This document shows, piece after piece, positions 31,681 to 54,889 of a stretch of 60,381 bases of DNA. Within the stretch, counting starts at the first letter, position 1. Each line of letters opens with the position of its first letter. Source of the stretch: a virus. Lineage: Duplodnaviria; Caudoviricetes. Both the position numbers and the translations under genes were made by a program. The notes under the pieces are model-generated. The model was not told the origin of the DNA and did no database searches. It saw only the letters and a list, made by a program, of their open reading frames with translations. The stretch lies in IMG/VR virus record IMGVR_UViG_3300037235_000083, positions 1 through 60,381 of that record. One strand, written 5' to 3'.

Positions 31681-32609
31681 GGTGCCGGATACAGGTCACT
31701 GGACGTGGGAACGCCATGGAACGAGGTCGACCACTGGCCTTCCGGCATTTCGCTTTCGATTTCGTGCGAGATATCGAACATCACAAAGGTCCCGTTCGCA
31801 AACGGCAGACTGCTTTGCACCTGGCAGAGCTTGCCGATGCGCAGCTTGGGATTGAAAAGCGTGGTAATCGCCACGCCCAGATTCCAGTTCGTCGGATACC
31901 CGCGCATGCCGGTCGCCGGGGAAATGAGCGGGGCCAAGGCAGGAGCCGTGACAACGATCTGCGGAATATCGGCGCTGCCAGAACGAAAACCGCCCTTCGG
32001 CCATATCGCCAGCACCCCATCATCCAGGCTGTTCCACTCGAAGTGCGCCTGCTGGACGCACGCGTACATCTGTTCGCGCAATGAGCCGCTGAAATACGGT
32101 GCGTCCAGAATGGCCGAGGCGCCATTGTTTTCGAAGGCATAGGGCGGGCTCGCCTGAGCGGCGAGGTTCGCCAACACCTGCGCCGCGTCGACCGGCACCG
32201 AATAACTGCTAGGCGGGATCATCTGCACTTGCTCGAAGGCGCCGGCATACGCGGCCAGTTCCAGAACGGCGTCCGGGGCGCCGGCCATCTGGATCGGGGC
32301 GAGGGTGATCTGCCCTTGGAAGATTTTTGTGAGGTTGGTGCCGTAATCACCCGCTGCGATGATGATCTGGTTAAAGCGCATCGTCACGGACCCGTTGGCC
32401 AGCCGGATGACTTGGGCCAGTTCGTTCATCATCGAGCGCGTCAGGCCATGCACCCTCACCGTGGCCTGGCCCATGGAAGGGCCGCCCGCATTCTGGATGC
32501 TGACCTGAACGCGCAGGCCTGAGACGGTCACCTGGTCGAAGCTACTCTGGCCGAAGGTGCCTTTGCCCAGCCTGAAGGTCAGATCGATCGCGCGGCGAAC
32601 GTAGGTCAT
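31677..32609 (-). CDS. baseplate hub protein
   Basis: Start MTYVRRAID; position and GM.GYP motif. Confidence 0.78.
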   Translation of the reverse strand: MTYVRRAIDLTFRLGKGTFGQSSFDQVTVSGLRVQVSIQNAGGPSMGQATVRVHGLTRSMMNELAQVIRLANGSVTMRFNQIIIAAGDYGTNLTKIFQGQITLAPIQMAGAPDAVLELAAYAGAFEQVQMIPPSSYSVPVDAAQVLANLAAQASPPYAFENNGASAILDAPYFSGSLREQMYACVQQAHFEWNSLDDGVLAIWPKGGFRSGSADIPQIVVTAPALAPLISPATGMRGYPTNWNLGVAITTLFNPKLRIGKLCQVQSSLPFANGTFVMFDISHEIESEMPEGQWSTSFHGVPTSSDLYPAP

Positions 32610-35600
32610 CAGGGCAACGCCGGCACAGGATCGGTACTTTCGATGTAGCAGAGCTGGTATCGCGTACCGAGCCCGGGGCTGGTCGGGTCGTTGGTGCCGT
32701 GCGTGTCCTGCCAGATCAGATCGCCGATGAATCCCAGGTAGTCCAGCCGCACCAAGCGGTTCAAGTTCTGGCACGCGACGCCGGTCGCCAAGGGCACGTC
32801 GTTCACGAAAAGGTCCAGATAGAGCGCATCAGGTCCGTCGGTGCTGCTGATCGTGTCGACAAACAATGAAGCGTAAGCAGCCGGCGGGGAATACGTGAAG
32901 GTGTTGGCTCCCAGGTTGAAGACCGTGGCGCTGCCGATCGCGCTCACGCTCATGGCCGGAAACCACGTGTTCGATGCGATGCCGCTCAGCGTGAAAACGA
33001 ACACGCCGTTGCGGTACATCGACAGCGTGCCGGTCGAAGCATTGAAGGCGAACCCGAGCACGTCGCCCATGTTGAATGGGTACGTGCCGTCGGCCACGAT
33101 CTGCGTACCGTTGTAGAAGATCCCGCCCAAATACGACCATCCGACCGAGGAAGCCGATGTGTCGCTGCCGATTCCCACCGGGCCGGAGAGCGGGAACGTG
33201 GCCGTGGCGATCCCGATCCGGTAAATGCCCGTCGGATTGATGAAGGTCGGGATCACTTCCCAGTAATAGCTGCCGGTTGCGACGCCGACATACGTCCTGG
33301 CGGTCTGCACGATGACCATCGCGGAGGTCGCTGGCAGAATGGTCCACAAAGCCAGTGTGTTCGAACGAATGAACGCACCATATCCATTGGCCGCCAGCAT
33401 CGCGCCAGGACCAGCGAGCGCGGAATTGGAAAACACGCTCGCGGTCGAGTACAGCAACGCCGTGGTGCCGCCGCTTAACTGCAATATCGATAGGCCGTTG
33501 GCCGAACTTCCACCTTCCCACAACCAGAGCGTTTGAAGATCGCCGTCCAGGCAGCCTTTGAACTGCGTTGTGTTATTCGGCGACGAATCGCTGAAGTCGC
33601 CGCTCAGTGCGGCAATAGAAGGGAAATACGTGCCGGAAATGCTGCCGTACGCTACCAGAGAGGCCGAACCTCCCGTCACATTGACGACGTTCCACTCCAG
33701 CGGTGACGCGTCGCTCGCGTTGGCCGTCAGAATCACGATATGCGCACCGTCTGCGCATGGATAAATTCCCTGCACATACATCTGAGAGGGAACGTTCGCG
33801 TTGCCGGCCAGACAGGGTAAGCAATCGAACTGGTAGGCCGCCGTTCCTGTCGCGTATCCTGACGTCACGACCACGTAGCCGCCGCCTGGATCGCTCGAGT
33901 AGGCCGCTGCCGGTGTCGTAAACGGTGAGGTTGGCGGCGTGAAGTTGCCCGTGTACTGCGCCACGCCCATCGAGATTCGCACTTCGTCGATATAGCCGGC
34001 CCACACACTGCCGCCGCCTAGCGCTGGGAATGCCGCGCCTATCGCTAGTCCTGATTGCGTGGATCCGATCGAACCGCTCGCAGTCACCGTCCATTGGCTG
34101 ACGCCGTCCAAATATGCATCGAACTGGTTGCCGTGGCGGACGAAGGCGTAATGATGCGGAACATTGGCAGTGACAAACGCGCCAGCGGTCATCGCTACCA
34201 TAAATCCGGTGAACGTTGAGTTTGCGCACGTCATCGTGAGCTGACCCATGTTCAGGAAAAACGCGATACCGTTGTTCGGGCTGCCGAAGATTTGACTCCC
34301 GAATAAAACACGCGATCCGGTCACGTCCGTCGCGTTACCCCAGCATTCGAAGGTGAAATCTGCGGAGCCAGGCTTGTAAAGATCGTCCGTTGTCGTGATG
34401 CAATCGGTGGTGCCGTTTAAAAGTAACGACGATGGCCCGAACTGGGCCCACGCGGTCGACAGATGAGCCGTGTTGTCACGCACCCAAGTGCCGGGATATT
34501 CATCAACCATTGTGGTTGAACCATTAGCCCCGTCGAAGTGCAATAGCGCGGTCACATTCGAGAATGGGAAGGGCGCTGTTGGGGGCGTGAAATTGGCCGT
34601 GTAGAGGGCGATATTGCTGATCCGCACCTCGTCGATATAGCCGTTGAAGATTTCGCCGATGTTAGCGATATCCCCGCCTATCCCAATAGGCTGACCGTTC
34701 GTAGAAATGGTGCCGGTGAGCGTCGCGCTGCCAAAGGACGTCCCGTTCAAATATGCGGTAACAGTCCCGGAGCTGCGAACGAGCGCACAGTGATACCACT
34801 GTCCGGTGGACAAAAGCGGGCCAGTTACGTTGAATCCGTACGAGCCGTGGCTGTTGCTGGCGTAGAAATGAATGTGATCATTTAGATCATCTTGGAATAG
34901 CAACCAGGAAGAGCCGCCTACCGTTCCGGTCTGGCCTAAAAACGAAGTGTTGATGCCGCCCGAAGAGAGCGCATTGAAGTAGACAAAGCACTCAAGCGTG
35001 AAATCGCCGGTAAATTCCCAGGTCGGATTATCCGGAGTCGTAATGTGTTGGTTGGTGGTGCTCGCAAGCGAAGCCGTTCCAAATTTGAAGTGCGACGTCG
35101 TTAACGTCGCGCCATTTACGGCCGACCATGAATTGCCGGCCGCGTCCGTGAATGTGCTGGATCCATTTGGGCCGTCCAGATGCAACAGTGCGAGTGTTCC
35201 TCCACCCACGGAAGCAGCAGCGGACACGCCGGGCGCAAAACAGACGCTATTGCCCTCTCTAGTCCCGAACGCCCCGTAGCCGGCTCTACTGATCCCGAAG
35301 CCGGAACCGACGGGGCCGACGCTGCTTTGACTGCGCGATCCCCACGCAGCCTGAACGGTAGAGTCGGCCACGGATCCGTGATATGAACCGGTCGCGATGT
35401 CGTAGGTGTATGAGTTGCCGTCACCTCTGAGCTGCGGGAATGTGGTCCCGTAGTTACACCCATCGGTGATGTGTATCCCGGTCGGATCGATACCGGTCAC
35501 GATTGGCCAGAGAGCGCCAGCGTTGGTTTGCGTGCCGGAAGTCGCAAAGGTCGGGGTCGACACGGCGACCTCGAACACGTCGCGCAATCCGGATCCTGGA

Positions 35601-35827
35601 GGCAGCCCAGACGTTGTCGGAGCCGACGTCATGATCGCGAGGTTGCCTTGGATAGATATGCCGGAGCCGGCGGGCCCCAAGGCGACGCCGCTGGCGGATG
35701 GACTTTGCTGTGCGCCGATGGCCGGATTACGGGTGGACTTCTGATAGATGTTCAGCGTGCACGACTGGCCACCCAGGATGACGTCCAGGCTTTGCGAAAA
35801 CGCATCGACCACCGGAACGATCTGCAT
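32609..35827 (-). CDS. small baseplate protein carrying a ~970-aa insert (2 LamG/ConA + SPRY-like domains)
   Basis: Baseplate-like N- and C-termini flank two LLH.DG.NGS..GYIDEVRIS repeats and YYWEV..GDVLG.A..WFPA. Confidence 0.8.
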   Translation of the reverse strand: MQIVPVVDAFSQSLDVILGGQSCTLNIYQKSTRNPAIGAQQSPSASGVALGPAGSGISIQGNLAIMTSAPTTSGLPPGSGLRDVFEVAVSTPTFATSGTQTNAGALWPIVTGIDPTGIHITDGCNYGTTFPQLRGDGNSYTYDIATGSYHGSVADSTVQAAWGSRSQSSVGPVGSGFGISRAGYGAFGTREGNSVCFAPGVSAAASVGGGTLALLHLDGPNGSSTFTDAAGNSWSAVNGATLTTSHFKFGTASLASTTNQHITTPDNPTWEFTGDFTLECFVYFNALSSGGINTSFLGQTGTVGGSSWLLFQDDLNDHIHFYASNSHGSYGFNVTGPLLSTGQWYHCALVRSSGTVTAYLNGTSFGSATLTGTISTNGQPIGIGGDIANIGEIFNGYIDEVRISNIALYTANFTPPTAPFPFSNVTALLHFDGANGSTTMVDEYPGTWVRDNTAHLSTAWAQFGPSSLLLNGTTDCITTTDDLYKPGSADFTFECWGNATDVTGSRVLFGSQIFGSPNNGIAFFLNMGQLTMTCANSTFTGFMVAMTAGAFVTANVPHHYAFVRHGNQFDAYLDGVSQWTVTASGSIGSTQSGLAIGAAFPALGGGSVWAGYIDEVRISMGVAQYTGNFTPPTSPFTTPAAAYSSDPGGGYVVVTSGYATGTAAYQFDCLPCLAGNANVPSQMYVQGIYPCADGAHIVILTANASDASPLEWNVVNVTGGSASLVAYGSISGTYFPSIAALSGDFSDSSPNNTTQFKGCLDGDLQTLWLWEGGSSANGLSILQLSGGTTALLYSTASVFSNSALAGPGAMLAANGYGAFIRSNTLALWTILPATSAMVIVQTARTYVGVATGSYYWEVIPTFINPTGIYRIGIATATFPLSGPVGIGSDTSASSVGWSYLGGIFYNGTQIVADGTYPFNMGDVLGFAFNASTGTLSMYRNGVFVFTLSGIASNTWFPAMSVSAIGSATVFNLGANTFTYSPPAAYASLFVDTISSTDGPDALYLDLFVNDVPLATGVACQNLNRLVRLDYLGFIGDLIWQDTHGTNDPTSPGLGTRYQLCYIESTDPVPALP

Positions 35828-38906: not shown

Positions 38907-40871
38907 TTATTCCACCTCGATCGAAGCAAGCGTGATCTGCTGAATCGATCCCGCGTCGTTGTACCAGAACGTACAGGGGGGAGTCGTTCGATTCGCGCGC
39001 GCCGTGGGCGTCGCTGGAAGAATCTGCAAGTACCAGCCATTGGCCGACAGCACATCATCGATGCGCGTGCCCGCGGCCGCGTTGACTTGCGCGACCTGGG
39101 TTGACGACAGCGGCACGCCCCCGGCGAAGGCGCCGAAGTTAAGACCCGCCAGGATCGGGCCCGGCGCATCCGGAGTGCCAAGGCACGTGTTTCGGATCAG
39201 GGCATAGCCGGTCGTGTTGTACGGGATGCTGTTGACGTTGAAGAGCAGATTCATTAGCGCGGCCTGGAACGAATTGTTCAGCCAAATCTGGTCGACAAAC
39301 GAATCGAGCCATTCGAAAGGCCCCGTCACGGTTCCCGGGGCGAGCCCGATGAATTGCTGATTGGCCGTGGCCCAGGCACCGTAGTAGTTGTAACCGTTGG
39401 CCGCGAGATTGATGGACGCGGTCAGGTTGGTGACGGTTGGCGTCAGTCCGCTTGGGCTGGACTTGTTTGCGAAGGCGATGCGGCCGTTGGTGCGAGCCGT
39501 ATCGATCGATGCGATCGCGCCGCACACGAATGCGGCGATCGTATAGTCGACCGAGTAAATCGGGCAGGTACCAGAGACTTCGGTAGATTCGAGGATGTAG
39601 CCCAAGCTGCTGGTCGCGCTGCTTGACAGCGTGGGCGAGACGTCCGTGTCCCAGCAAATGTAGGCGAAGTTATTGACCGCGACCGCGCCACCCGCCCATT
39701 TGGCAAAGGCCACCTTTTGCGTGTTGCCGTAGCCGCCATCCGGATCGAAGAGCGTGAAAAAGCTCGCCCAGTTGGTGGTGATGTTCACCGCCGCGTTCAT
39801 GAATGCCGCTGGCGTGGCCGCGGCCGCGCCTTGCGAGGTCACGGCGCCGGTGGCCGCTGTCAGCAGTAACGAGGCCGAAAGCGTGCCGGTGGCAAAGCCG
39901 ATCGTGCCGGGCGCGCCGGGCGTCCCGCCCGTGAGCGTAAAGGCGCCGGACACGCTGTCGTAGGTGCACAGCAGGGGGCCGGCGCTGATGGTGGTCGCCG
40001 ATACGCTCTGAGCGCCGCCCGACGTGTAATAGGTCCCCGCGGCACCAGTTCCGCTGCCCAGCGCCGTGATCGTGGTCCCGACCGCGACGCCAGAGCCAAC
40101 GATGGTCTGGCCCACCGCCAGAAAGCCGCTCGCCATGCTGCCGGACACCGTCATCAGGCCTGCCGACTGCGTAATCGCGGTGGAGGCCACGTTCTGAATC
40201 ACAGATACCTGATAGGTGCCAACCCCGCCGGCAATCCCGGTGAGCTGGGACACGATGGTGGTGCCGGCAGTGATGCCCGTGCCGGAAATGACGCCACCGA
40301 CCACCAAGGTTCCCGTGACCGCGGTGGCGTTCATCACGTTGCCGGTGATCGAAGCGGTGCCGGTCGTGGAACTGGCCGCGGCGATCGTAGTCGTGTTGGC
40401 CGTGACGCCGTCATAGGCGGCAAACGCGGTGGCGATGAGTGCCGCAGCATTCGAAAAACTGGTCGCCGCGGCCAGGCTGATCGAGGAAGCAGTCTGGACT
40501 TCGCCGTCGACCGTGACCGTGAGCGATCCGCTAAGGGCTTGCAGCTGAGCGAGCGTCATCGATGCGACCGATGCTCCGCGCAAGTACGCGGGCACCGCGA
40601 CGGACGGATACTGCGCAAACAGCATCGCGCCCGGCTTGGCGGTCGAATTGGTGAACCCGCCGAAGTAGATAGACGCCGCGGCCGCCTCGCTCGAGCTTCC
40701 GCCGAATGCCGTGCTGACCGCCAGGGCCGACGGATATGAGGCTACCGTGCCGATCGGCACGCGGGAATTCTGGGTCAGGCAAAGGCCGGTGAGCTGCAAA
40801 GCATTGCCGCCCGCCCCGATCACACCCGGAACGATGTTAACGAGTGCCGATGCCGGGATGGAAGATCCCAT
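38907..40871 (-). CDS. tail sheath protein (DUF3383-like) with beta-repeat insert
   Basis: IPAS..V...PGV, NGYNYYG, WLDS...QIWLN, WY.D.GSIQ. Confidence 0.88.
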   Translation of the reverse strand: MGSSIPASALVNIVPGVIGAGGNALQLTGLCLTQNSRVPIGTVASYPSALAVSTAFGGSSSEAAAASIYFGGFTNSTAKPGAMLFAQYPSVAVPAYLRGASVASMTLAQLQALSGSLTVTVDGEVQTASSISLAAATSFSNAAALIATAFAAYDGVTANTTTIAAASSTTGTASITGNVMNATAVTGTLVVGGVISGTGITAGTTIVSQLTGIAGGVGTYQVSVIQNVASTAITQSAGLMTVSGSMASGFLAVGQTIVGSGVAVGTTITALGSGTGAAGTYYTSGGAQSVSATTISAGPLLCTYDSVSGAFTLTGGTPGAPGTIGFATGTLSASLLLTAATGAVTSQGAAAATPAAFMNAAVNITTNWASFFTLFDPDGGYGNTQKVAFAKWAGGAVAVNNFAYICWDTDVSPTLSSSATSSLGYILESTEVSGTCPIYSVDYTIAAFVCGAIASIDTARTNGRIAFANKSSPSGLTPTVTNLTASINLAANGYNYYGAWATANQQFIGLAPGTVTGPFEWLDSFVDQIWLNNSFQAALMNLLFNVNSIPYNTTGYALIRNTCLGTPDAPGPILAGLNFGAFAGGVPLSSTQVAQVNAAAGTRIDDVLSANGWYLQILPATPTARANRTTPPCTFWYNDAGSIQQITLASIEVE

Positions 40872-40884
40872 GGGGTAACTCCGT

Positions 40885-41430
40885 TTAGTGGTACGTTGCT
40901 TCGACTGAAACCACGTTGATCTTCACGCCGGTCGTGAAGTCCTGCGGGACCGTCACGATCGGATTGCACTGAAGGATGCAGGCGATCACCCAGCGCTCTT
41001 CCACCTGTTGCTCCGCATTCGTATACGGAATCTGGTGCGGCGGCTCGCCGGTGTGCAGCGGAGTAACGTCAAAGCCGCTGGTCGCGAACTGCTGGCAGCC
41101 CCAATCGCTGCGAAAGAGCGTCACGATCGCCTGAGTGTTGTCGCCGCTGGCGGGCCCGTGCACGTCGAGCTGCACCGTCACGATGGCCGGATCGCGGATC
41201 GCCAGCGTGCTGGGCGCGCTCGGATAGCCATCCGTGTACGTGTCGGTGTTCGTCTCGATGCGTTCGGCGAACATGAACGTCATTTCGACGAAATTGACCG
41301 CTTCTGGTTCGGGAACGCGGTTGTCCTGGCCGGCCACCACCGGGGTGCCAGGGGGTAGAACGGCCAGCAGGAAGCTGCGCAGCGCCGCGAGTGTCTGTTC
41401 CTCGGTCAGGCTGACGGTCGGGGCGCCCAT
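40885..41430 (-). CDS. neck/tail terminator protein
   Basis: GQDNRVPEP..QLDVHGP..LFRS..EQQ.E.RW. Confidence 0.75.
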   Translation of the reverse strand: MGAPTVSLTEEQTLAALRSFLLAVLPPGTPVVAGQDNRVPEPEAVNFVEMTFMFAERIETNTDTYTDGYPSAPSTLAIRDPAIVTVQLDVHGPASGDNTQAIVTLFRSDWGCQQFATSGFDVTPLHTGEPPHQIPYTNAEQQVEERWVIACILQCNPIVTVPQDFTTGVKINVVSVEATYH

Positions 41431-41456
41431 CTACTAGATTTAATTCGTATTTAAAT

Positions 41457-42029
41457 CTAGACGTGCCGGCCAGGCCAGATCATGTTCGGGCTGATTGCGG
41501 TGGCCGCCTGCGGCGACTCATTGCCGGGGACCGTGTTAGGTTGCTGCTGATCCGGCAGCATCTTTTGCGGGGGCGGTTCGTCCTGCGCGCCGTCCGGACC
41601 CTTGGCGGTTGCCGCGTTGTCGACGCTGATCGTTTCATCTTCGTTGAACCAGGCCAGCCGTTGACCCACATCACTTTGAGCCGGTGGACCTTTGGGCGCT
41701 TCACCGCTTTTGGCCGCCTCACCGGACATGGGATCCGACGCGGGTGCCTTCTTCGCTGGCTCAGCCGCTCGCGCTTTTGCTTGCGCTTCGCTCTTCTGTT
41801 TTTGCTCGACTTGCATTTTCAGAGACGTCATGGCCGCAGAGGGCGGCGAACTACCACCGCCAGAACCAAACCGACCTTGCTCGTCGCGCTGTTGCTCTGC
41901 GTCCATGGCATCGATGCCGCTGATCGTGCCTTTGTTCGCGCTCGCGTAGAGCACCTGTTCGCCTTTTTCCTTGCCGTACTGGTCCTGCATCGCGCTCTTG
42001 ATTTCCTCGCCCTTCGAGGTCAGTGGCAT
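41457..42029 (-). CDS. putative internal head protein (modular, low complexity)
   Basis: MPLTSKG..YG.EKG..V.YAS.NKG.I.G module, then AMD-AEQQRDEQGRFGSGGG. Confidence 0.7.
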   Translation of the reverse strand: MPLTSKGEEIKSAMQDQYGKEKGEQVLYASANKGTISGIDAMDAEQQRDEQGRFGSGGGSSPPSAAMTSLKMQVEQKQKSEAQAKARAAEPAKKAPASDPMSGEAAKSGEAPKGPPAQSDVGQRLAWFNEDETISVDNAATAKGPDGAQDEPPPQKMLPDQQQPNTVPGNESPQAATAISPNMIWPGRHV

Positions 42030-42031
42030 TT

Positions 42032-42186
42032 TTAGCTCCAATGAATACGGCCGACCAACTCACTTAGAAGCCAGCAGGCGAGGCCCGCCCAGCCCAGCGA
42101 CACACGCGCCGACGCCACGTTCACGGCAGCCAGGATCAGCAAAACGAGCGCGGCCACTTGCAGGATCAGGGTTGCGGTGATCATGG
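42032..42186 (-). CDS. small two-TM protein
   Basis: LILQVAALVLLILAAVNV..VSLGWAGLACW. Confidence 0.6.
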
Positions 42187-42207: not shown

Positions 42208-42588
42208 CTAGTCGTTCTGCTGGGTAACTCCGACCTTGGTCCAGCCAGCGGTTTCGGACCAGTTCTCGAGCACGATCGCCACAAGCCACCCCGTACCGTC
42301 CGGGAGAGTGATGAGGTCGCCGCCCTTTACGTCCGGGCGACTGACGCCCTGAATGTTCCCGCTGATGTACATCGCTAGGCGCACACCTTGCAGGTTCAGG
42401 CCTTGGATCTGGGCTAGGTCTTTCCAGGACAGTGCTTGCGCCTGAATCTGAACGGACACCGGCGCCGCGTAATTCGGAGCACGCTTACCCGATGCGTTCT
42501 GCTGGGACCCGGTCGATTGCTGCCACTGGCCGATCACCCACGGATTTACCTTGGATACGTAGGGCGCGGCGATCTGATGCAGGTTCAA
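42208..42588 (-). CDS. head closure / head-tail adaptor
   Basis: NLH..A...VNP...G.R.P.Y..Q.QAL...GGDL...WLV..VLE.W..W. Confidence 0.75.
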   Translation of the reverse strand: MNLHQIAAPYVSKVNPWVIGQWQQSTGSQQNASGKRAPNYAAPVSVQIQAQALSWKDLAQIQGLNLQGVRLAMYISGNIQGVSRPDVKGGDLITLPDGTGWLVAIVLENWSETAGWTKVGVTQQND

Positions 42589-42959
42589 GCGGCGTCCCCA
42601 TTCGTTACGAAACCGTGCCATCCGCAACCGCCGCCTGTCAAGGCGACGCTACGGCTGCGAGTCTCTGACGGCACGAAGGTCAGATCCGCTAATCCAGTCC
42701 CTTGCGTCACCCAGCGGCCTGGACCAGGCCGCGCGTCATCCGGTACTTTGCCGACGAACCAACAGACCACGGCATGCGTGCCAGGACGTCCGCCATTGGA
42801 CGCAAAGCACTTCGGGCACAGGAACCAGACCCCGTCCGCTTCGGCCAGCGTATCGACCCATTTCTGGCCGCCGTTCTGGTAGACCTCGCCGTTTTCAGCA
42901 ACCCAGCCGGGAGGCAAATACCGCAGGAAGTGCGCTTCCAGATCGGGAACGAGCCTCAC
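42585..42959 (-). CDS. DUF6527-like protein
   Basis: FLCPKC..H..W..G....LT..PS...C.WHGFVTNG. Confidence 0.65.
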   Translation of the reverse strand: MRLVPDLEAHFLRYLPPGWVAENGEVYQNGGQKWVDTLAEADGVWFLCPKCFASNGGRPGTHAVVCWFVGKVPDDARPGPGRWVTQGTGLADLTFVPSETRSRSVALTGGGCGWHGFVTNGDAA

Positions 42960-45398: not shown

Positions 45399-46511
45399 TC
45401 AGACCCCAATCATCTGCGCGATGGCGAATGGCTGGCGGATGACTGCGCCCCACGTTCCTTGCGTCATCTTTTGCTTGTAGCTCGAAAGGTCGCGGATGAT
45501 CGGGCCGGCGCGCAGTTTTTCGCTGAACGCGCAGTAGCCCGTTTCCTGGCCTTCGACCTTGGTAGCGATCAGCTGCACGATTTCGCCCGCCGCCGACCCT
45601 TGCGCGTTCTGAGTGGTCAGGGCCCCGTACTGGATGGCCGGAACCACCTTCAGGTTCGGGTAGTTGGTGCCAAGCAGCGTTTTCACGTTCACGTTGTACG
45701 TGTTCGTGAAATTGAGCGCGCCCGCCGAGTGCGGCGACATGCCCAGCACCATGTCGGATTCGGCGTTGATGTTGCCGCCCGATTGCGCAATGAGCTGCAC
45801 GACCAGGGCGACGATGTCGTTGTAGACCTCCAGGCCCGTCGCGTTGGGGCTGTTGCCGATGAACCAGGTCAGGCCCCCGGCCGCCTTTGGTCCCGGCGCG
45901 ATCGCCGCAGGAAGAGACGGATCGTTCAGCAACCCGTAGTTCTGAAGGCCGGCGATGCCGAAGAAGTAGGACAGGTTTTGGAACTTGTTCAGGTTCACGA
46001 TCGAAGCCTGCTTCAGTTCCGAGGCCCAGCCGATCTTGGCCGCGCCCATGCGCTCCATTTCCAGTTCGCCGTACTCGGCGATGGTCTGGTATAGGTAGTT
46101 TTCGCGCTGTGGGAAGTTCGTGTTGGCGCCGGACTTGCCCGCCTGCGAAAAGTCCCCGTAGGTCGAGACCTCGCCCGTGTGTTCAACGACCGAGAAGACG
46201 GCCGTCACGTCGACGAATGAGCCCTTGCGGACTTCGCCGAAGATTTCAGCCGCGGCGTTCTTCGCGGTCAGGATCCGCAGCACTTCCGGATCCAGGAACG
46301 TGACCAGGAAGGCCGGAATGCCGGACTGCGGGGTGGTAACAAGCTGCGGCTGCGCGTCGTAGGCTCCCTTGAAGTCGCGCTTCCAGGAAGGCTTGACGAA
46401 CACCTGAGCGCCGTCAAAAGCGATGCCATAGGTTTCGCGGTAAAAATCGAGCACCGCGCGCTGCTCGCGCAACGACAGGTCGTATGCGAGTCTGTCGGGC
46501 ATTCTGTCCAT
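45399..46511 (-). CDS. major capsid protein (DUF2184-like)
   Basis: GIPAFL...DP, GE...YGD, YGELE, GL.NYGLLNDP.L, QK...GTWGA.I..P.AI..M.GV. Confidence 0.9.
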   Translation of the reverse strand: MDRMPDRLAYDLSLREQRAVLDFYRETYGIAFDGAQVFVKPSWKRDFKGAYDAQPQLVTTPQSGIPAFLVTFLDPEVLRILTAKNAAAEIFGEVRKGSFVDVTAVFSVVEHTGEVSTYGDFSQAGKSGANTNFPQRENYLYQTIAEYGELEMERMGAAKIGWASELKQASIVNLNKFQNLSYFFGIAGLQNYGLLNDPSLPAAIAPGPKAAGGLTWFIGNSPNATGLEVYNDIVALVVQLIAQSGGNINAESDMVLGMSPHSAGALNFTNTYNVNVKTLLGTNYPNLKVVPAIQYGALTTQNAQGSAAGEIVQLIATKVEGQETGYCAFSEKLRAGPIIRDLSSYKQKMTQGTWGAVIRQPFAIAQMIGV

Positions 46512-46548: not shown

Positions 46549-47724
46549 TCAGCCGAGCGGCCAGCTGCTCATCTTGACGAGTTCGCCGGGTTGACCGACC
46601 GACAGCGCGTACCACTTGGTTTCGGTGCCGGAGTTGGCGTTGATCGCCTGCGAGGACAGGGTTTGGCCCTGGTTCAGGTAATACGTGCCCGCCCCGCCCG
46701 TGCCCGTGCCCAGCGCGATGATGGACGTGCCCGCGTTCACGCCCGAGCCGGTCAGCAGATCCCCGACCGCGAAGGTGCCGGTAAGCGTGCCCCCGACCGT
46801 CAGTGTTCCGCCGGAAGCCGTGATCGAGGTCGACGTGGCCGCCGTCTGGGCAATCGCAGAAAAGACCGAGAAGGTCGCCCCGTTGGTCGAGGGCGTGGCT
46901 CCCGTGAGCTGTTGGTAGATCGTGGAGCCCGCGGCAACGCCGGTACCGGTCAGGGTTTGCCCCGGAAGGAAGGCGCCCGTGATAGTGGTCGCGATGGTCA
47001 GGGTCGACCAGTTCGGCGCCGTAAGCGTGATCGGCGTGCCGGACGAACCCACGGTCTGCGAAATGTTGACCTGGTAGGTTCCGGTCGATCCCGTGGAGCC
47101 GGTGAGCTGTTTCACGACGGTCGTGGCCGGATCCAGGTTGGTGCCAGACAGCACCATTCCCGGCCCGATCGAACCGCCCGTGACAGTGACATTCAGCAAG
47201 CCCCCGCCGCCCGCGCCGGTGTACGGCACGACGTAGCCGGTGGCGGCCAGCAAGTCCAGGTGGCCAGCGGTCGTGTTGTTCAGCGCGATCGACGAGGCCG
47301 TGCTGGTTGCGCCAGCCGGCGGGGTGCCGGTGGCGGCGAACGTCACCAAGCCCGTGCTGTTATTCGCGTAGGCCTTGTTGTTGATGGCCGACGCGCTCGA
47401 GCCGCTGTTCAGTACCCAGAATTCGCCCTCGCTGTACAGGGTCACGCCCAGGCCTTGCGGGATGATCTGGGTGTTGTCGGCCAGGAATTGCGTGATAAGG
47501 GCCGCGCCCGGGTGCCGACCGGCAAAGCCGGTGGGCGCGCCGATCCCGGCGTTGCTCACGAACCTGTTGCTCGCATCGGCCCAGCCAAAGGCACCGATGA
47601 CAATGCCGGCCGCGGCCGCCACGAACGCGCCCGGCCCGTTGATCACCGATGCGCGGATATTCGTGCTTGCGAAGTCGCCGGCCACGCCTACGCCGGGTAC
47701 GGTGTTTACTTGTCCAGGGAACAT
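46549..47724 (-). CDS. capsid decoration/cement protein with beta-repeat insert
   Basis: F...VN..P..GV.GDFAS.N N-terminus and ETKW..GELVKMS C-terminus flank three Gly/Thr repeats. Confidence 0.78.
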   Translation of the reverse strand: MFPGQVNTVPGVGVAGDFASTNIRASVINGPGAFVAAAAGIVIGAFGWADASNRFVSNAGIGAPTGFAGRHPGAALITQFLADNTQIIPQGLGVTLYSEGEFWVLNSGSSASAINNKAYANNSTGLVTFAATGTPPAGATSTASSIALNNTTAGHLDLLAATGYVVPYTGAGGGGLLNVTVTGGSIGPGMVLSGTNLDPATTVVKQLTGSTGSTGTYQVNISQTVGSSGTPITLTAPNWSTLTIATTITGAFLPGQTLTGTGVAAGSTIYQQLTGATPSTNGATFSVFSAIAQTAATSTSITASGGTLTVGGTLTGTFAVGDLLTGSGVNAGTSIIALGTGTGGAGTYYLNQGQTLSSQAINANSGTETKWYALSVGQPGELVKMSSWPLG

Positions 47725-47760: not shown

Positions 47761-50700
47761 TTACACGACGCGCAGGCCTGCCGCGGCTGGCGACAGACTG
47801 GCAATCACGCTGTCGACCGTCGCCGCGGAGTCCGCCGCCATGCGCGGGGGCGGCTCACCGTCGGGCCGGCGCTTGGGCTGCGCGGCCAGAATGTGCTTGT
47901 AGGCGGTCGGGTGCACGTCGGTTAAGTCGATTTCCAAGGCTTCGAGCGCCGCCTTGAAGACGCCCTCAGCCGTATCGCAGGCGAGGGTGAGCTTGCCGAC
48001 CCACGGCTGCACGAAGGCCTCGGCGTCGGCCAGGGCGCGCATCTGCGCCATGGTTTCCTTGCGCGTGTTCTTGGTCGCCTCGGCGATCGCCGCGTCCATG
48101 GCGGCCTTGCTGACTGCTTGGGTCATGGCTGCGTCCTTGTCCTTGAGGGGGTCCTTGCCGGGTGAGGTTGCTGGGGGTTTGGGCTGACCTTCGCCGCCAG
48201 GCGGTTCATCCTGGGCCGGCTTCGTTTCTGCCGGAGTGGGCGAGCCCGCTGGCGCAATTTCGGCATGCGGGCCGGCGGGGCGCAGCGCCTTGAGCTTTTC
48301 GCCCAGCCAAGCGTGATGCTCAGGCTTCAGGTGGGGCTTTAAAGCCTCCAGGATTTCGTTCACCGGATCGGCTTCCCCCGGCTTGGCGCCCGGTGCCGCC
48401 GGTGCTGCGGCGGCCGGCGCGGCTGGCGGTTCGCCTTCGGCCGGCGGGGCATCACCGGCTGCACCATAATCGGAATCCAGCGGTTCGGCGCCGCCGGGCG
48501 CCGGCTCGCCAGCTGGCGGCTCGCCCCCGGCTTCGCCCTCGAGCCCGTCAAGCAATTGCGTCAGGGATGCAACGCTCGCATCCTTGGCCAGGACAGTCGC
48601 CGGCAGTTTCAGCTTGCGAACGGCGGCGATGATTTCGGGCTTTTTCGTCTTCCAGTTATCCGAGGCGCACCCGATCAGGATCTTGTTCAGATCCTTTGCG
48701 AACGCGGGGCGCGCGTCTTTTGCCAGCAGTGGCGGAAGGACCGCGAGCAAGGCTCCCTTCGCCAGCATGGCCTTCCGTGACAGCACTTGCTGGGTGGTTC
48801 CCATCTGACCTGACTCCTTTGGTTGGCTATCTCCCACGATTACGTCGGATCCCGCGCGACCGTCCCGCACCAGTGCGACATGGTTGCCTCGGATTTCACG
48901 CATCACGCCGTCGTAACGGCGCCCCTCGAATACGCCCGGCGTCATATCGGCCACGTACCGGTACGAAGCCGACAGTTCACGCGTCTGATTCGTTTCGATC
49001 TGGTCGCACGCGTCCCCGTCCCAGAACACGAGCGAATTGGTGAGGTACGGCGCATTGAAGGCTGCATCCGTTCCGGTCGACCCGATCACCAGTTCCTTGT
49101 CCAGGTCATCAGCGGTGGTGGGCCGGTGATCGGACAGGAGCGGAATGTTGTTGAAGGTCGGAACCGCCTTGGCCAATTCCTGCGGATCGCGCAGCAGGTA
49201 ATAGACCTTGCGTGGTTCGAGCCCGAGTTCTTCGGCGTCCGGAATCTCGAAACCGTAGTACGGGTTGACGGTCGCCTTGCTGATGTTGGCGACCTCGATG
49301 TGCAGCCGGCCGTCCTGGTCGTAGCTGCGCACGCTCGCGCGATCGAACGCCAGCCGTTCGCCGGTGGCGCGATCGAATGCCAGTTCGGGATCTTCGGCCA
49401 GCTCATCGCCAGCCAAGCGGGCAGGGCGCCCGCTATCGTCTACGGAACTGTCTCGTCCGGATGATCCTTCAGGAAGGCTTGCGCTTCCTGGTCCGCCTGG
49501 TCGTCCGCTTCGTTCGCCAGATCCACCAAGGTCTTGCCCTGATGTTTGGCCGCGAACTTCTTCACGGCTTCCGCCACCTTGGCCGGATCCAGTGAGATAT
49601 TCGTATCGGTCTTGCTTGATTCGGCCATCGTCGAGCAGCTTTTTGGCAACGAGTTTCAGAGACGACTTGATGACCTCTGGATCATACCTCGGAACATCAT
49701 CGATCGATCCGACGTGGATATCGCCCAGGTGGCCCTGATTGTTCAGGATATTGATCTTGACTCTGGGATTGCCCGCATAGTGCTGCGCCAGTTCGCGCAC
49801 CGTTTTCGAGGCGCCCAGATGCGCGTGCTCGAGCGTTGCGCCTTGTACGGCCCGCTTGCGGATCGCGTTGAACGCGAAAGCCTTCTCGATGGGCGAGTTC
49901 GTGTAAACGATGCTGACCGGGCCCGGGGCCGTGTTCAGCGCCTCGTCGATTTTCTTGATCGCGGACTTCGTGTTCGACAGCGTCGAATCGAAGGTCAAGC
50001 CATCGTCAGGCAGCCCTAGCGCCTGGATCGCGACGTCCATCGCTTCGGACTTGCCCGACCCGCTGCCGCCGGCCGTGAACAAGGTCGGGCTCTTATCGCC
50101 GCGCGCGGCCTTGTCCTTCAGTGCCGCCGTGAAGATCATCTTCGACAGCAGCGAAGAGGGCTCATGAACCACCGGCGCGAGCTTGCGATCGCCGACGAAC
50201 GATCGGGACAGGAGTTTCACCTTGTCCGGATCGATCACGTTGCCGAAGCGCTTGCGATAGGTACCGATCAGCGCCTTCGGGTTGTGGCGGATCGCGTCGT
50301 AGAAGCCCTGCTCGATCGCGCGGTGCTCAGGGCTCAGGCCCGCGGCGCGCGTGAAGCCGTGCTCGTCGATGTGCTCAGCTTGTGCAGCGCTCTTTTTCGC
50401 CTGCACGGTTGCGGCACGTTTCGCGGCCGTTTTTTCCTTCTTTTCGTTGGCTAGGTCTTCTTCCTGGAGCGCGTTGGCCTGTTCATACAGACGGCGACTT
50501 TCCTGTGGGTTGCTCGCCCGCAGCGCATTGGATTGCCGCAGTAGATCCTTTTGTTTAGCCCGATTGGCTTCCCGGTTGAATGGCGCAGCGCCACCGCCCT
50601 CACCGAACCGTCCACCCTCGTCGCGCGGGTGCTTGGACTCGTCCCACTCAGCGTCCATTCCCATGCGCGCCGCGGCAAGCATCGGCAGGATGCGTTCTAC

Positions 50701-51078
50701 GCCAGGGTGCAGCGGTTCGGGCGGATCGTCGATCTGCGCCCAAATGTGATCCGTGTGTTCGTAGTTCAATTCCGGAGCGAAGAGGTCATCTTTGACGCGC
50801 TGCACGAAGGTGACGAATTCGACGCCGTCCAGTGTCAGGTGCGCCAGCTCGCGAAGCTTTCCTTCCGGAATGTCACCGATTTCCTCGATCGCCTCGCGCC
50901 GGGCCGTCTCGAGCGGGGTTTCATCATCCTTCGCGGTGCCACCTGGCAGGCACCATTCGCCCGCGTGGTCGCCGCGGCTCGAGCGCTTCAGAAACAGGCA
51001 CAGGCCGTCCGGGGTGATGAACGCAATGCCGGCGCCTTCGGTAACGGCGGTACCGGCGTAGCCCGGATCGAATGGCAT
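47761..51078 (-). CDS. polyprotein: NUDIX hydrolase + zeta-toxin-like P-loop kinase + DUF2213-like prohead protease + scaffold
   Basis: Nudix box [22 protein letters not shown]; [17 protein letters not shown]; NISKA.VNPY.G.EIP, ELSASY, NHVALV..GRAG. Confidence 0.88.
49440..49628 (-). CDS. nested +1-frame 62-aa acidic helical protein (candidate antitoxin)
   Basis: [39 protein letters not shown]; GC3-rich codons while the host frame has A/T-ending Gly/Ser/Arg codons. No clear SD. Confidence 0.6.
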
Positions 51079-51087
51079 GGCATCGTT

Positions 51088-51762
51088 TTAATAGGTGAAG
51101 GGCGCCGCAGGCGGGGTGAAATTCGCTGTGTAGCGCGCGACTCCCATGGAAATGCGTGCTTCGTCAACGTATCCGTTCCAGCTGCTAGTGCCGCCAGCAT
51201 TAGCCGCTCCGATCGCCTGGCCCGTCATGCCTTTGATAATTGAACCGCTATACGTAGCGGATCCTTGTGAAACACCGTTCAAGTAGGTGTTGAAATTATT
51301 TCCGTGCCTGACACCTGCCACGTGATACCAGGTGCCCGTTGACAGAGTTGCACCCGAGGTAAACGCGACACTCCAATTGGTACCGCCGTCAGCACTGCCG
51401 CATAGCAAAGTGATCACGCCGCCGTTTAGAAATAAAAGCACTCCCGAAAATCCGGCACCTTGTGAACCGAAGATAACCTGTGATCCCCCAATGCTGATGG
51501 CGTAGACAAAAGCCTCATAGGTCCAATCCTGAAGGAGCGCAGCGAAGATATCGTTGCTCGTGCTTATAAAAGCACCGCCAGGAAGCAACAGCGAACTGGG
51601 GCCGAACTTCTGCTGTGCCGTCGATAGCGTCGCACTACTACCCGACCACGTACTTGAGTAAACGTCGGTAAAGGTGGTCGAACCATTCGTGCCATCGAAG
51701 TGCAGCAGCGCAGTGCTGACGATGATGCTGCTGCGATAGCGCGTCGCTAAAGCGCCAGTCAC
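51088..51762 (-). CDS. LamG/concanavalin-like domain protein (virion decoration)
   Basis: LLHFDGTNGSTTFTD..WYHVA.VR..YLNG..GYVDEARIS..YTANFTPP; GTGA coupling. Confidence 0.82.
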   Translation of the reverse strand: MTGALATRYRSSIIVSTALLHFDGTNGSTTFTDVYSSTWSGSSATLSTAQQKFGPSSLLLPGGAFISTSNDIFAALLQDWTYEAFVYAISIGGSQVIFGSQGAGFSGVLLFLNGGVITLLCGSADGGTNWSVAFTSGATLSTGTWYHVAGVRHGNNFNTYLNGVSQGSATYSGSIIKGMTGQAIGAANAGGTSSWNGYVDEARISMGVARYTANFTPPAAPFTY

Positions 51763-52472
51763 GTCAGGTCCCCACCGATCAGCCAGGTATCGCTGCCCAA
51801 ATATTTGGCCCATATGGTGGAGTTTTGGGCGCGCGCCGTGAGCGAACTGGGGTTCGCAAAGGTCACGCCGGCACCTGCCACGAACGCCGTCTGTCCGGCG
51901 CCAAGTTGTGGCACGACAATGAGCGTACCCGTGACCCAGGCCGTCGTGCTGTGCGGGTCGAGCGTCACGTTGTTGGCCGAGGCGTTGTTCATGGTGACCC
52001 AGCCCTCGTAATTCGAAGACTGTGGCGCATCGGCGAGAACCGGGTGATAACTCGTCCCGGTTTGCGGGTTAATCGGTGGGGCACTCCCAGTGGCCGGAAG
52101 CGCAGTCCATGCTGGAGCGCCCGCCACCGAAGTCAGAACGTAGTTGGCGGTGCCGATGCCAAGCCTTGCCGCTGCTCCGGAAACCCCGCCGATGATGATG
52201 TCGCCAGCCGTGGTCATCGGATTGGCAAGACCGGTGGCCGCTGCCCACGCTGGTTCGCCCGCAACGACCGTCAGGACTTGGCCAGTAGATCCGATCGGTA
52301 TCCGCTCCGGCGTGCCGCTTGTGCCGCCGTCGATCAGATCGCCGGAAGCGGTCATCGGATTCGTCATACCGCCGCCGCCCCCGCCGCTGATTGCCTGCGC
52401 TACGGCCGCGGCCGTGCTGGGCGCATCCCCGCTGGCAATGGCGCGCGCTTGCGCTGGAGTCAGGGATGTCAT
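51759..52472 (-). CDS. head fibre-like protein
   Basis: Two NPMT..GD.I.GG.SG...R..IG....VLT.VAG.PAW repeats; C-terminal IN.QTGTSY..W.IGGDL domain. Confidence 0.72.
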   Translation of the reverse strand: MTSLTPAQARAIASGDAPSTAAAVAQAISGGGGGGMTNPMTASGDLIDGGTSGTPERIPIGSTGQVLTVVAGEPAWAAATGLANPMTTAGDIIIGGVSGAAARLGIGTANYVLTSVAGAPAWTALPATGSAPPINPQTGTSYHPVLADAPQSSNYEGWVTMNNASANNVTLDPHSTTAWVTGTLIVVPQLGAGQTAFVAGAGVTFANPSSLTARAQNSTIWAKYLGSDTWLIGGDLT

Positions 52473-53868: not shown

Positions 53869-54750
53869 TTACGACTCCATTCGACCGAGTCCCGGAATCA
53901 CGGACCGGCTGACACACCGGCAATTGATCAACTCGCCCGGAAAGATGTACTGCTGTTCCTTCTCGGACCACATGCCTTCACTGATCTTGTAGCGTTTTCG
54001 CGCTGCGCCCCACGCGACATGATCCGGGCGCGGCTCGCGTCCGCCGCCGCTGTGCACCCAGATCGCTTCGGTGATCCCCAGTTCATGCTGCCGCACGCGG
54101 ATACGCGTCGCGGTCGCCTTGTTGTTCTGGTCCCGTGCGATCAGAGCGGCCCGGCGTTCGGTGCGTGCCGAGAGTGACTTGTTAGACTCGCCGGGCTTGC
54201 GACCCAGGCCGATACGCGCCAGGTTCACCTTCGGCCCCAGGTAGTCGGTCAGCGCCGCAAGGTCGCGCCCTACCGCGGCCGATCGCATGACCTCGGTTTC
54301 GATGTCTGTGAAGTAGCGCTGCGGGATCGATTTGATCAGGGACACGTTCTCGCCCGTGGTCGCTTGCCAGACGTCGCGGGTGAGCGGCGTTGTGCGCAAC
54401 CGCACAGAAAAAGCGTGCTTTGCCAGAATCGCCTTCAGCGCCGCGTCGGTGCGCTCGCTAACCTTGGTCGCGAAATACTCGGCTAGGTCCGGGGCCAGTT
54501 CATCGAACCGTTGCTGCCAGCGCTTGGCCAGAGCCCGGATGATCCGGCGCAGGATGACCGATGGGGCGTCGTCCTGCGCCATGCGCGGCGTGTGCGCCCG
54601 ATACGCGGCGGTGAGCCAGTGCACGACGCTGTTGTGCATCTGGGCAATCAGCAATAGCAGCCGGCGCCGGTATTCGACCTCGAGGCCAACGTTGGGGTGG
54701 ATAGGCGCGGCGACTTTAATCGTCGTCTTCGCCGCCTTCGCCATCGTCAT
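53869..54750 (-). CDS. head morphogenesis protein (MuF/SPP1 gp7 family)
   Basis: ENVSLIKSIP, RAALIARDQ..KA, W.HS...PR..H, PGELINCRC. Confidence 0.9.
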   Translation of the reverse strand: MTMAKAAKTTIKVAAPIHPNVGLEVEYRRRLLLLIAQMHNSVVHWLTAAYRAHTPRMAQDDAPSVILRRIIRALAKRWQQRFDELAPDLAEYFATKVSERTDAALKAILAKHAFSVRLRTTPLTRDVWQATTGENVSLIKSIPQRYFTDIETEVMRSAAVGRDLAALTDYLGPKVNLARIGLGRKPGESNKSLSARTERRAALIARDQNNKATATRIRVRQHELGITEAIWVHSGGGREPRPDHVAWGAARKRYKISEGMWSEKEQQYIFPGELINCRCVSRSVIPGLGRMES

Positions 54751-54889
54751 CTTCCGGAATGCTTAGCTTGGCCAGTTCGCGCGCCGTCTGCCGATCCTCT
54801 TCCTCCCACGGTTTCAATCCCAGCATCGCGCGCACCAAGTTCCCGCCAGCCGGGGATTTCCAGATCGCTTTCGCATCAGGGCTCAGCAT
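54716..54889 (-). CDS. 57-aa acidic protein overlapping the portal stop (candidate inhibitor/immunity)
   Basis: SD AAGGGG then MLSPDAKAIWKSPAGGNLVRAMLGLKPWEEEDRQTARELAKLSIPEDDDGEGGEDDD*; below track cutoff. Confidence 0.65.
   Translation of the reverse strand: MLSPDAKAIWKSPAGGNLVRAMLGLKPWEEEDRQTARELAKLSIPEDDDGEGGEDDD

Follow-up and report, generated by a model that had tools for sequence, protein, structure and literature searches.

The IMG/VR virus record IMGVR_UViG_3300037235_000083 (Duplodnaviria; Caudoviricetes) is one phage contig of 60,381 bases and about 62 % G+C, and the whole record is the window analysed here. Two of its minus-strand genes, encoding proteins of 1105 residues (ORF1105) and 190 residues (ORF190), each carry a copy of a short peptide that we call the junction leader. 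A six-frame scan of the contig with the expression R[DE]x.G[RK]F gives exactly two matches, both on the minus strand, and the expression [AGS]MD.?AE also matches exactly twice in the six frames, directly upstream of these copies (41895-41909 and 50647-50661). The initial annotation had described a leader motif common to two head genes and placed right after putative cut sites. The scan returns the strings as they were first written, and both copies follow x-M-D|A-E (the bar marks the putative cut), matching the A-x-D|A/S of the capsid, portal and scaffold sites. The description as head genes holds for ORF1105, the head protease, but is not established for ORF190, a gene of the neck module with the collar gene on one side and the tail-terminator gene on the other. 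The features of the two genes are as follows.

47761-51078, minus strand: ORF1105, putative protease-scaffold polyprotein, 1105 residues
50683-51036, minus strand: NUDIX domain of ORF1105, residues 15-132, upstream of the putative cut (Pfam PF00293, 50.8 bits, 2.1e-13)
50590-50661, minus strand: canonical leader of ORF1105 with its upstream site, G140-G163
50605-50625, minus strand: R[DE]x.G[RK]F copy of ORF1105, R152-F158
49582-50349, minus strand: zeta-toxin-like P-loop kinase domain of ORF1105, about residues 244-499 (AlphaFold2 and Foldseek)
48826-49329, minus strand: DUF2213 prohead protease domain of ORF1105, residues 584-751 (Pfam PF09979, 157.3 bits against a cut-off of 22, 4.6e-46)
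41457-42029, minus strand: ORF190, 190 residues
41910-42029, minus strand: N-terminal module (N-module) of ORF190, residues 1-40, MPLTSKGEEIK..YG.EKGEQV[LF]YAS.NKGTI.G[IV][DH] (near-invariant columns of 38 homologues)
41853-41909, minus strand: truncated leader of ORF190, A41-G59, AMDAEQQRDEQGRFGSGGG, read as AMD|AE-QQ-RDEQGRF-GSGGG
41868-41888, minus strand: R[DE]x.G[RK]F copy of ORF190, R48-F54
41580-41588, minus strand: second A-x-D site, in the tail of ORF190, A148-Q149-D150|E151 (putative cut, from sequence; ATD-E in the homologue P0005)

The complete motif has two halves. The N-terminal half, [W/F]-[D/E]-E-x-x-H-P, is W145-D-E-S-K-H-P151 in ORF1105, and its place is taken by Q46-Q47 in ORF190, where the stretch with its flank reads G38-I-D-A-M-D-A-E-Q-Q-R-D-E-Q-G-R-F-G-S-G-G-G59. 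The C-terminal half, R-[D/G]-x-x-G-[K/R/Q]-[F/W] followed by a glycine-rich run, is present in both copies and in ORF190 takes the form RDEQGRFGSGGG. A profile built from 117 foreign instances, with the rows of the window removed, gives 46.7 bits for ORF1105 and 16.3 bits for ORF190 (E 2.7e-4 in the six-frame set), and the next best frame of the contig reaches 2.9 bits. At the DNA level the two copies share only short identical runs of 8-9 bases (CGCGACGAG and GGCGGTGG), so their similarity is maintained at the protein level and does not reflect a recent DNA repeat. Both are kept in a sister phage, the ORF190 copy in protein P0002 and the ORF1105 copy in P0190; together with the short identities this excludes a recent intragenomic DNA duplication as their source. 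The ORF1105 copy lies between the NUDIX and zeta-like domains, and the ORF190 copy precedes a predicted-disordered segment only.

ORF1105 matches the PHROG head maturation protease (5.5e-122), with its DUF2213 domain between the MuF and capsid genes. From its N-terminus the protein is ordered as NUDIX domain, cut site with canonical leader, helical linker, zeta-like kinase, glycine/serine-rich linker, DUF2213 domain and scaffold tail. An AlphaFold2 model of residues 125-520 has a mean predicted local distance difference test score (pLDDT) of 87.8 and shows an alpha/beta P-loop domain behind a long helical linker; the motif core forms a small beta-bridge between R152 and F158 at a pLDDT of about 75, with flanks at about 50-60. 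The best Foldseek match of the P-loop domain is the zeta1 protein of N. gonorrhoeae (6eph_B; E 1.2e-11, template modelling score 0.55, 283 columns, 20 % identity), followed by AvrRxo1, streptococcal zeta and PezT. The Pfam Zeta_toxin family (PF06414) reaches 19.3 bits over the P-loop region only, under its cut-off of 22.3, and we therefore call the domain zeta-like; phmmer with this region found no match among PDB sequences. The modelled fold is that of a zeta-type P-loop kinase, with kinase activity as a prediction only.

To find how widespread the leader is, we used a degenerate 42-base pattern, W[DE]E..HPRD..G.F, which carries about 44 bits by our own estimate, so that well below one chance match is expected in IMG/VR. 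It matches at least 130 IMG/VR stretches, which reduce to 123 distinct instances. From these the full junction peptide reads (A)-x-(D/E)-[W/F]-D-E-s-K-H-P-R-[D/G]-x-x-G-[K/R/Q]-[F/W]-x-x-G-G-G, with near-invariant W, E, H, P, R, D, G and F; in the logo the upstream positions are (D/A/K)(A/L/K)(E/K/D) and the end is (K/Q/R)-F-(T/S/A/G)-x-G-G-G. The initial annotation had proposed to build a hidden Markov model of the motif and to list upstream residues and downstream domains across phages. A 119-segment profile run against 1.84 billion cluster representatives finds 2232 proteins at E<=1e-3, 224 at E<=1e-10 and 12 at E<=1e-30, and the upstream residues of the motif track the protease family, as detailed below. 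With tblastn, the 46-residue motif region gave nothing against GenBank phages even at E 10, a result that the low-complexity filter or the short query probably explains and that does not imply absence. The sole match of the profile among PDB sequences is marginal (QPRDASGRFAYSGGPG, residues 83-100 of 9rku chain Af, E 0.026). That chain is a 454-residue 'putative tail biosynthetic protein' from the baseplate core of phage 7-7-1.

The placement of the motif within proteins was followed in the top 150 profile hits, where a loose expression finds 487 copies. Their median spacing is 264.5 residues over 340 gaps (5-95 % range 141-659). Of 147 proteins, 56 have their first copy no more than 60 residues from the N-terminus, and only 6 have their last copy that close to the C-terminus; the median stretch behind the last copy is 305 residues long. 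With this spacing of about one domain and this N-terminal bias, the repeated unit is a leader followed by a domain. The largest number of profile-matched stretches in one protein is 19, in a protein of 7334 residues. Copies at one-domain spacing are seen in two giant metagenomic proteins, this one (P0042, 18-19 copies) and one of 5313 residues (P0126, 15-17 copies), and in both a local variant, FAFDP(N/D)(E/Q)PRDEHG(K/Q)W, alternates with the canonical form.

The same orientation emerges from the domains around the motif. We scanned 70 of the 74 instance-bearing IMG/VR open reading frames (ORFs; four near-duplicates were dropped) with Pfam at E<=1e-5. Among the matches listed, 27 of the 70 have a hit, and the motif lies inside the best-matched stretch in none of the 27. 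Their Pfam partners are ART-PolyVal, ADPrib_exo_Tox, Phage_Mu_F, Phage_portal, Phage_portal_3, NUDIX, Zeta_toxin, PBECR1, LPD3, 2H phosphoesterase, RelA_SpoT, SAM lyase, S78_2 and DUF2213. Of the top profile hits, 12 of the 19 scanned gave a Pfam match at E<=1e-5, and these add InPase, C39 and GNAT to an otherwise identical repertoire. The motif thus precedes domains, and its leader orientation is supported. The motif-bearing sets examined here are polyvalent proteins fused to a portal, a MuF protein or a head protease. Polyvalent proteins carry two or more unrelated effector-type domains on one chain, in many cases joined to a virion-assembly domain, as ORF1105 does with its NUDIX domain, zeta-like kinase, protease and scaffold. 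The portal of this phage carries a ddrB-ParB cargo, and ORF190, with no recognisable effector domain, falls outside the polyvalent class.

The zeta-like domain allows one leader-domain unit to be followed across carriers. It has 83 relatives, some of them with a precomputed PF06414 assignment, and the motif stands ahead of the P-loop domain in 67 of the 83. They are distributed over carriers as follows.

Phage_portal_3: 63 of 83
MuF: 8 of 83
DUF2213: 2 of 83 (this phage and its sister)
Polyvalent or zeta only: 7 of 83
No Pfam match: 3 of 83

Leader and domain thus behave together as a mobile cassette, and the proteins among which it is exchanged are ones whose entry into the procapsid is known.

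We then considered what lies directly upstream of the leader. The A-x-D words of this phage and of phage PB1 recur at the places where head maturation would be expected to act.

46356-46364, minus strand: presumed maturation site of the major capsid protein, A50-Y51-D52|A53 (the PHROG capsid profile aligns from residue 49)
Major capsid protein of PB1: S-A62-M63-D64|S65-N66
Portal N-terminus: V-A-M-D|S at 74-77 in PB1, A84-M-D86|S in this phage
Protease-scaffold of PB1: A-A-D|S, A-Q-D|A, A-M-D|S and A-Q-D|S
Protease-scaffold of this phage: A-K-D|A twice, A-G-D|A, A-M-D|A and A-A-D|S
56100-56219, minus strand: portal-cargo junction, portal residues 551-590, with another glycine-rich leader, AHD|EK-WITVHGGKEGGGQPVLITEGG (WITVHGGKEGGGQPVLITEGGVVKGGAGG), before ddrB-ParB (assigned by sequence)

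The last of these bears out the statement of the initial annotation that the portal cargo uses a different leader, and here again A-x-D stands two residues ahead of the W. In passages on the related phage E217 (PMC10329688, PMC11456595), the first 65 residues of the capsid protein gp25 are described as invisible, with a model that covers residues 66-382. From the PB1/E217 capsid N-terminus and the recurrent sites we infer that DUF2213 cuts after A-x-D. Since the PB1/E217 comparison supports A-x-D as the DUF2213 cut site, both leader copies of this phage probably become new N-termini. The proposal that the motif is exposed by proteolysis is therefore plausible as far as A-x-D lies at the expected processing places, the cut itself being one that we infer. 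Judging by titles and abstracts, the literature on DUF2213 holds nothing on its specificity, and a literature search found no paper on capsid processing in PB1-like phages.

In the zeta-cassette relatives an aspartate lies within five residues upstream of the motif aromatic in all 76 of 76 copies, typically as A-Q-D|A-E-F or A-Q-D|D-A-K-W. We compared these upstream residues with the protease family in 17 contigs that were chosen by eye from the upstream residues, several of them incomplete and not phylogenetically independent. DUF2213 is found in 8 of 9 contigs of the D[AS]xW type (the miss is a contig 30 % complete) and in 0 of 8 contigs with K or another residue before the W (Fisher p 4e-4). 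S78_2 is found in 0 of 5 of the former and in 3 of 5 of the latter, and the HK97-type Peptidase_S78, seen in 1 of 5, was dropped as an explanation for the class lacking D. In this set the upstream residues co-vary with the head-protease family, D-(A/S) going with DUF2213. This fits a scheme in which the few residues before the motif are a lineage-specific protease site and the motif itself is independent of the protease.

Taken together, these observations lead us to the following explanation, to which as a whole we give a probability of about 0.6. Both sequences would represent a single widespread peptide that forms junctions or leaders in phage polyvalent proteins, which as a class are presumed to be loaded into the head. 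The form in ORF1105 is canonical and that in ORF190 truncated, and both would be exposed by a head-protease cut after A-x-D. The leader stands before each cargo domain, and leader plus domain behave as a cassette on portal, MuF or protease-scaffold carriers. In phages with DUF2213, this one among them, the leader is directly preceded by an A-x-D site of the kind seen at the presumed maturation sites of capsid, portal and scaffold. The cuts of head maturation would then fall behind D142 in ORF1105 and behind D43 (or D40) in ORF190, and the leader would stay as the new N-terminus of the released piece. ORF1105 would be a polyprotein that yields a NUDIX piece, a leader with the zeta-like kinase, the protease and the scaffold. 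ORF190 would be a small neck-module accessory protein, built on an unrelated helical hairpin, that has picked up a partial leader.

ORF190 itself consists of an N-terminal helical-hairpin module, the truncated leader and a disordered tail. Its start is the ATG at 42029 (MPLTSK...), as in its homologues. It has no match in Pfam, PHROG or NCBIfam and no usable match in the ESM Atlas. A search for longer homologues, in which none of 1721 candidates scored, is weak evidence, and a wide VIA-align search with the ORF190 model reached a best Z of 3.4, a helical hairpin being a query that gives little information. The N-module, a conserved helical hairpin of 38 residues, is found in 37 of 38 homologues, the 38th being N-terminally truncated. 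In the AlphaFold2 model the helices span residues 5-18 and 20-33, with a pLDDT of 86-97 for residues 1-40 and below 70 beyond. The module is also present in pelagiphages and, judged by its homologues, is a widespread small phage module. It occurs alone as a protein of 50 residues between the head and tail genes of an IMG/VR contig (L133, 3056-3208, plus strand), and it forms the N-terminus of a hypothetical protein of 119 residues in Puniceispirillum phage HMO-2011 (L001, 6001-6360, plus strand).

The rest of ORF190 had been described as a small N-terminal module plus disordered sequence with another AQD. The module, the low pLDDT and A148-Q149-D150 are all there, but the tail is not featureless, as SDVGQRLAWFNEDE, A-x-D|E and a C-terminal WPG(R/K)H are kept among close relatives. 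ORF190 may be cut after D40 or D43 and after D150. The reading of ORF190 as a nearly empty cargo carrier is not well supported, given its place in the neck module, its separate and widespread hairpin, the rarity of the motif among module-bearing proteins and the conserved elements of its tail. ORF190 is most safely read as an accessory protein of the neck module that has a mini-domain of its own and acquired a partial leader in this lineage.

Closely upstream of ORF190 lies an ORF of 50 residues that has two hydrophobic stretches.

42032-42184, minus strand: 50-residue ORF, beginning MITATLILQVAALVLLILAAV..., with a GGAG-type ribosome site and no PHROG match

The stop codon of this ORF comes two bases ahead of the ORF190 start, which makes the two genes look translationally coupled. 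At the other end, a perfect 10-bp A+T-rich inverted repeat at 41434-41460 (CTAGATTTAA, a 7-base loop, then TTAAATCTAG) stands out in this 62 % G+C genome, overlaps the ORF190 stop codon and ends 3 bases ahead of the tail-terminator start. It could be an RNA hairpin, or a scar or border of an inserted two-gene unit.

Several observations weigh against the explanation given above. Regarding ORF190, the near-invariant W, E, H and P are all missing from its copy, AlphaFold2 gives the motif region a pLDDT of 50-66, and RD..G(R/K)F follows the N-module in only 4 of 37 proteins (ORF190, P0002, P0003 and P0005). In the general IMG/VR set an aspartate lies within five residues upstream in only 49 of 123 instances, among the matches listed. 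Regarding carriage, none of the eight MuF-zeta fusions matches the core expression and the three inspected all lack the motif, so the leader is not required for carriage. A tblastn search of GenBank phages with the zeta cassette gave one weak match only (uncultured Caudoviricetes sp., 27.6 % identity), and no cultured phage in that set has this cargo. Regarding the cut, the A-x-D specificity comes from one structural observation, on E217, and from sequence recurrence, and in passages of the E217 papers the authors note that the invisibility before residue 66 could also be disorder (PMC10329688, PMC11456595). A-x-D is a short word that is present also inside the folded kinase domain (A346-M347-D348), and the association with the protease comes from 17 contigs that were picked by eye, are partly incomplete and are phylogenetically non-independent.

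The points on ORF190 can be read in another way: its resemblance to the leader would be functionless, a vestigial or chance glycine-rich linker in an accessory protein outside the head, with the activity in the N-terminal hairpin. The low profile score without W-x-E-x-x-H-P, the rarity of the motif and the low model confidence agree with this, as do the existence of the N-module alone as a 50-residue protein and the insertion of ORF190 between collar and gateway genes that are adjacent in PB1. On the other hand, the copy has both x-M-D|A-E and R-D-E-x-G-R-F-G-x-G-G-G in common with the canonical copy of the same genome, and no other frame of the contig exceeds 2.9 bits. It is also kept in the sister phage: the sister proteins P0002 and P0003 retain the leader, and the 49 %-identical homologue P0005 has a reduced form, VDEQQRDQAGKFSSGGGG. 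Weighing both sides, we consider a functionless copy possible but doubtful.

The role of the leader itself is a matter of conjecture, and the ejection or capsid-targeting tag proposed in the initial annotation would be a putative one. Our preferred guess is that the leader keeps the junction exposed to the protease and would afterwards serve as an N-terminal handle by which the cargo is held or let go. Its main rival holds that the motif is the processing signal itself, a recognition or presentation element on the P' side for assemblin-fold prohead proteases with no role after the cut. The motif does lie at junctions and outside the best-matched Pfam stretches, adjoins upstream residues that co-vary with the protease family and ends in a glycine-rich tail; moreover, portal fusions, whose cargo has to be released, carry it, and MuF fusions do not. 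However, the motif is missing downstream of the A-x-D sites in the capsid, portal and scaffold proteins, both here and in PB1, so it is not needed for cutting, and the same motif occurs in phages with different protease families. In addition, among the top profile hits the core begins so near the N-terminus in 22 of 147 proteins (within 30 residues) that a cut would remove little, which argues for a role beyond separating domains. We hold a pure processing signal to be unlikely.

The retained leader as a post-cleavage handle, for retention near the exit or for release, is itself a speculative reading that we put quite low. The same low standing applies to a broader conjecture in which the HPRD leader would address head cargo in tailed phages generally: once the prohead protease has cut just ahead of it, the exposed N-terminal hairpin W-D-E-x-K-H-P-R-D-x-x-G-K-F would be recognised by a conserved virion component, for instance the portal crown, what remains of the scaffold, or the DNA end, and the cargo would be held at the exit and leave first when the phage infects. 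If so, many unrelated phages could package and deliver whatever protein bears this leader on a carrier of the portal, MuF or protease kind.

A very unlikely alternative is that the motif, in the manner of the VENN-type demarcation motifs of polymorphic toxins, is mainly a recombination joint for swapping leader-domain cassettes with no direct biochemical role; one zeta cassette does occur with its leader on portal, DUF2213 and polyvalent backbones and copies do recur at one-domain intervals, but the two copies here share only those 8-9-base runs, and what very distant phages conserve is the amino-acid sequence, which points to selection on the peptide.

The genome around the two genes is of a known type. 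The minus strand from about 60,000 down to 27,000 is a structural module of the PB1/E217/XM1 type by Pfam and PHROG matches, with the following further genes.

59324-60019, minus strand: small terminase
57870-59321, minus strand: large terminase
54876-57869, minus strand: portal, 997 residues, with ddrB-ParB cargo (Pfam Phage_portal_3 residues 112-466, ddrB-ParB 616-768)
53869-54750, minus strand: MuF
46549-47724, minus strand: cement protein
45399-46511, minus strand: major capsid protein
42208-42627, minus strand: E217 gp28-like collar, among the neck genes
40885-41430, minus strand: neck terminator (tail-terminator gene)
38907-40871, minus strand: DUF3383 sheath, followed by the tube

Residues 293-373 of the cement protein and residues 236-297 of the sheath match the same PHROGs (21413 and 38233, 'tail fiber protein'), and one small repeat domain appears to have been inserted into these two different structural proteins. 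A Laminin_G_3 protein of 241 residues (51088-51813, minus strand) lies inside the head module between MuF and the protease, and the Laminin_G_3 domain is present twice in a baseplate- or fibre-like protein of 1072 residues (32609-35827, minus strand).

The significance of the leader lies in what it would make concrete. For phage polyvalent proteins, packing into the head, cutting and delivery with the DNA have been predicted, while the places of the cuts and the handling of the pieces have so far been guesswork. The leader with its upstream residues points to specific cut sites that can be tested, and it is a candidate for a label by which cargo is handled; for this phage it lets the 1105-residue gene be read as a polyprotein. 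If confirmed, it would allow the automatic delimiting of cargo modules in metagenomic phage proteins, give an A-x-D specificity rule for the uncharacterised DUF2213 proteases of the PB1/E217 group of therapy phages and suggest how foreign proteins might be put into phage heads. In the searchable literature, where searches by motif strings found no published account of the junction motif, neither the conserved leader nor its link to protease-specific sites appears to have been described.

Among known systems, the closest in gene content is that of the Pbunavirus phages PB1, E217 and Pa193. As far as the passages of PMC10329688 and PMC11456595 describe them, they have in common with this phage the Phage_portal_3 portal, MuF, the DUF2213 protease-scaffold, the cement protein, the gp28-like collar, the gp29-like gateway, the DUF3383 sheath and A-x-D sites at equivalent places. 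The portal, MuF, protease and capsid proteins of PB1 differ in that they lack the junction motif, and its collar and gateway genes are adjacent, whereas this phage has ORF190 and the 50-residue membrane ORF between them.

The system belongs to the known polyvalent head-cargo proteins. In the passages of Iyer et al. 2017 (PMC5512222) that set out the idea, for phages and conjugative elements, such proteins enter the head, undergo processing there and reach the host together with the DNA, and the domains are the same as here (ART, zeta-like kinase, NUDIX, 2H, PBECR, LPD, InPase and MuF), as are the fusions to portal and assemblin-like peptidase. Those passages mention no junction peptide, the motifs named there being catalytic or domain signatures, and they propose zincin-like peptidases as the main processors, whereas here the motif-adjacent sites follow the prohead protease family. 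The MuF polymorphic toxins of temperate phages (Jamet et al. 2017, PMC5576092; Bxa, PMC11699363) are similar, in the passages that describe them, in combining a virion-assembly carrier with a variable C-terminal toxin-like domain; those of Jamet et al. 2017 (PMC5576092) mention no junction motif, linker or cleavage. They differ from our set in that the MuF-zeta fusions inspected here lack the motif and most portal fusions have it.

Two further comparisons concern the leader itself. The capsid targeting sequence of phage T4 is a short N-terminal peptide of internal proteins that lies upstream of a prohead-protease cut and is removed. The leader resembles it as a short peptide tied to a prohead-protease site on head-packed proteins, but differs in lying C-terminal to A-x-D, in both proteins here and in 76 of 76 zeta-relative copies, so that it would be retained, and in being repeated many times per polypeptide. 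Polymorphic toxins have demarcation motifs, such as VENN of CdiA and DPxGL of Rhs. Like these, the leader is a short word at the border between a constant carrier and a variable cargo, associated with cassette exchange, processing or both; unlike them, it has a different sequence, would take a phage-head route instead of secretion and occurs in many copies per protein.

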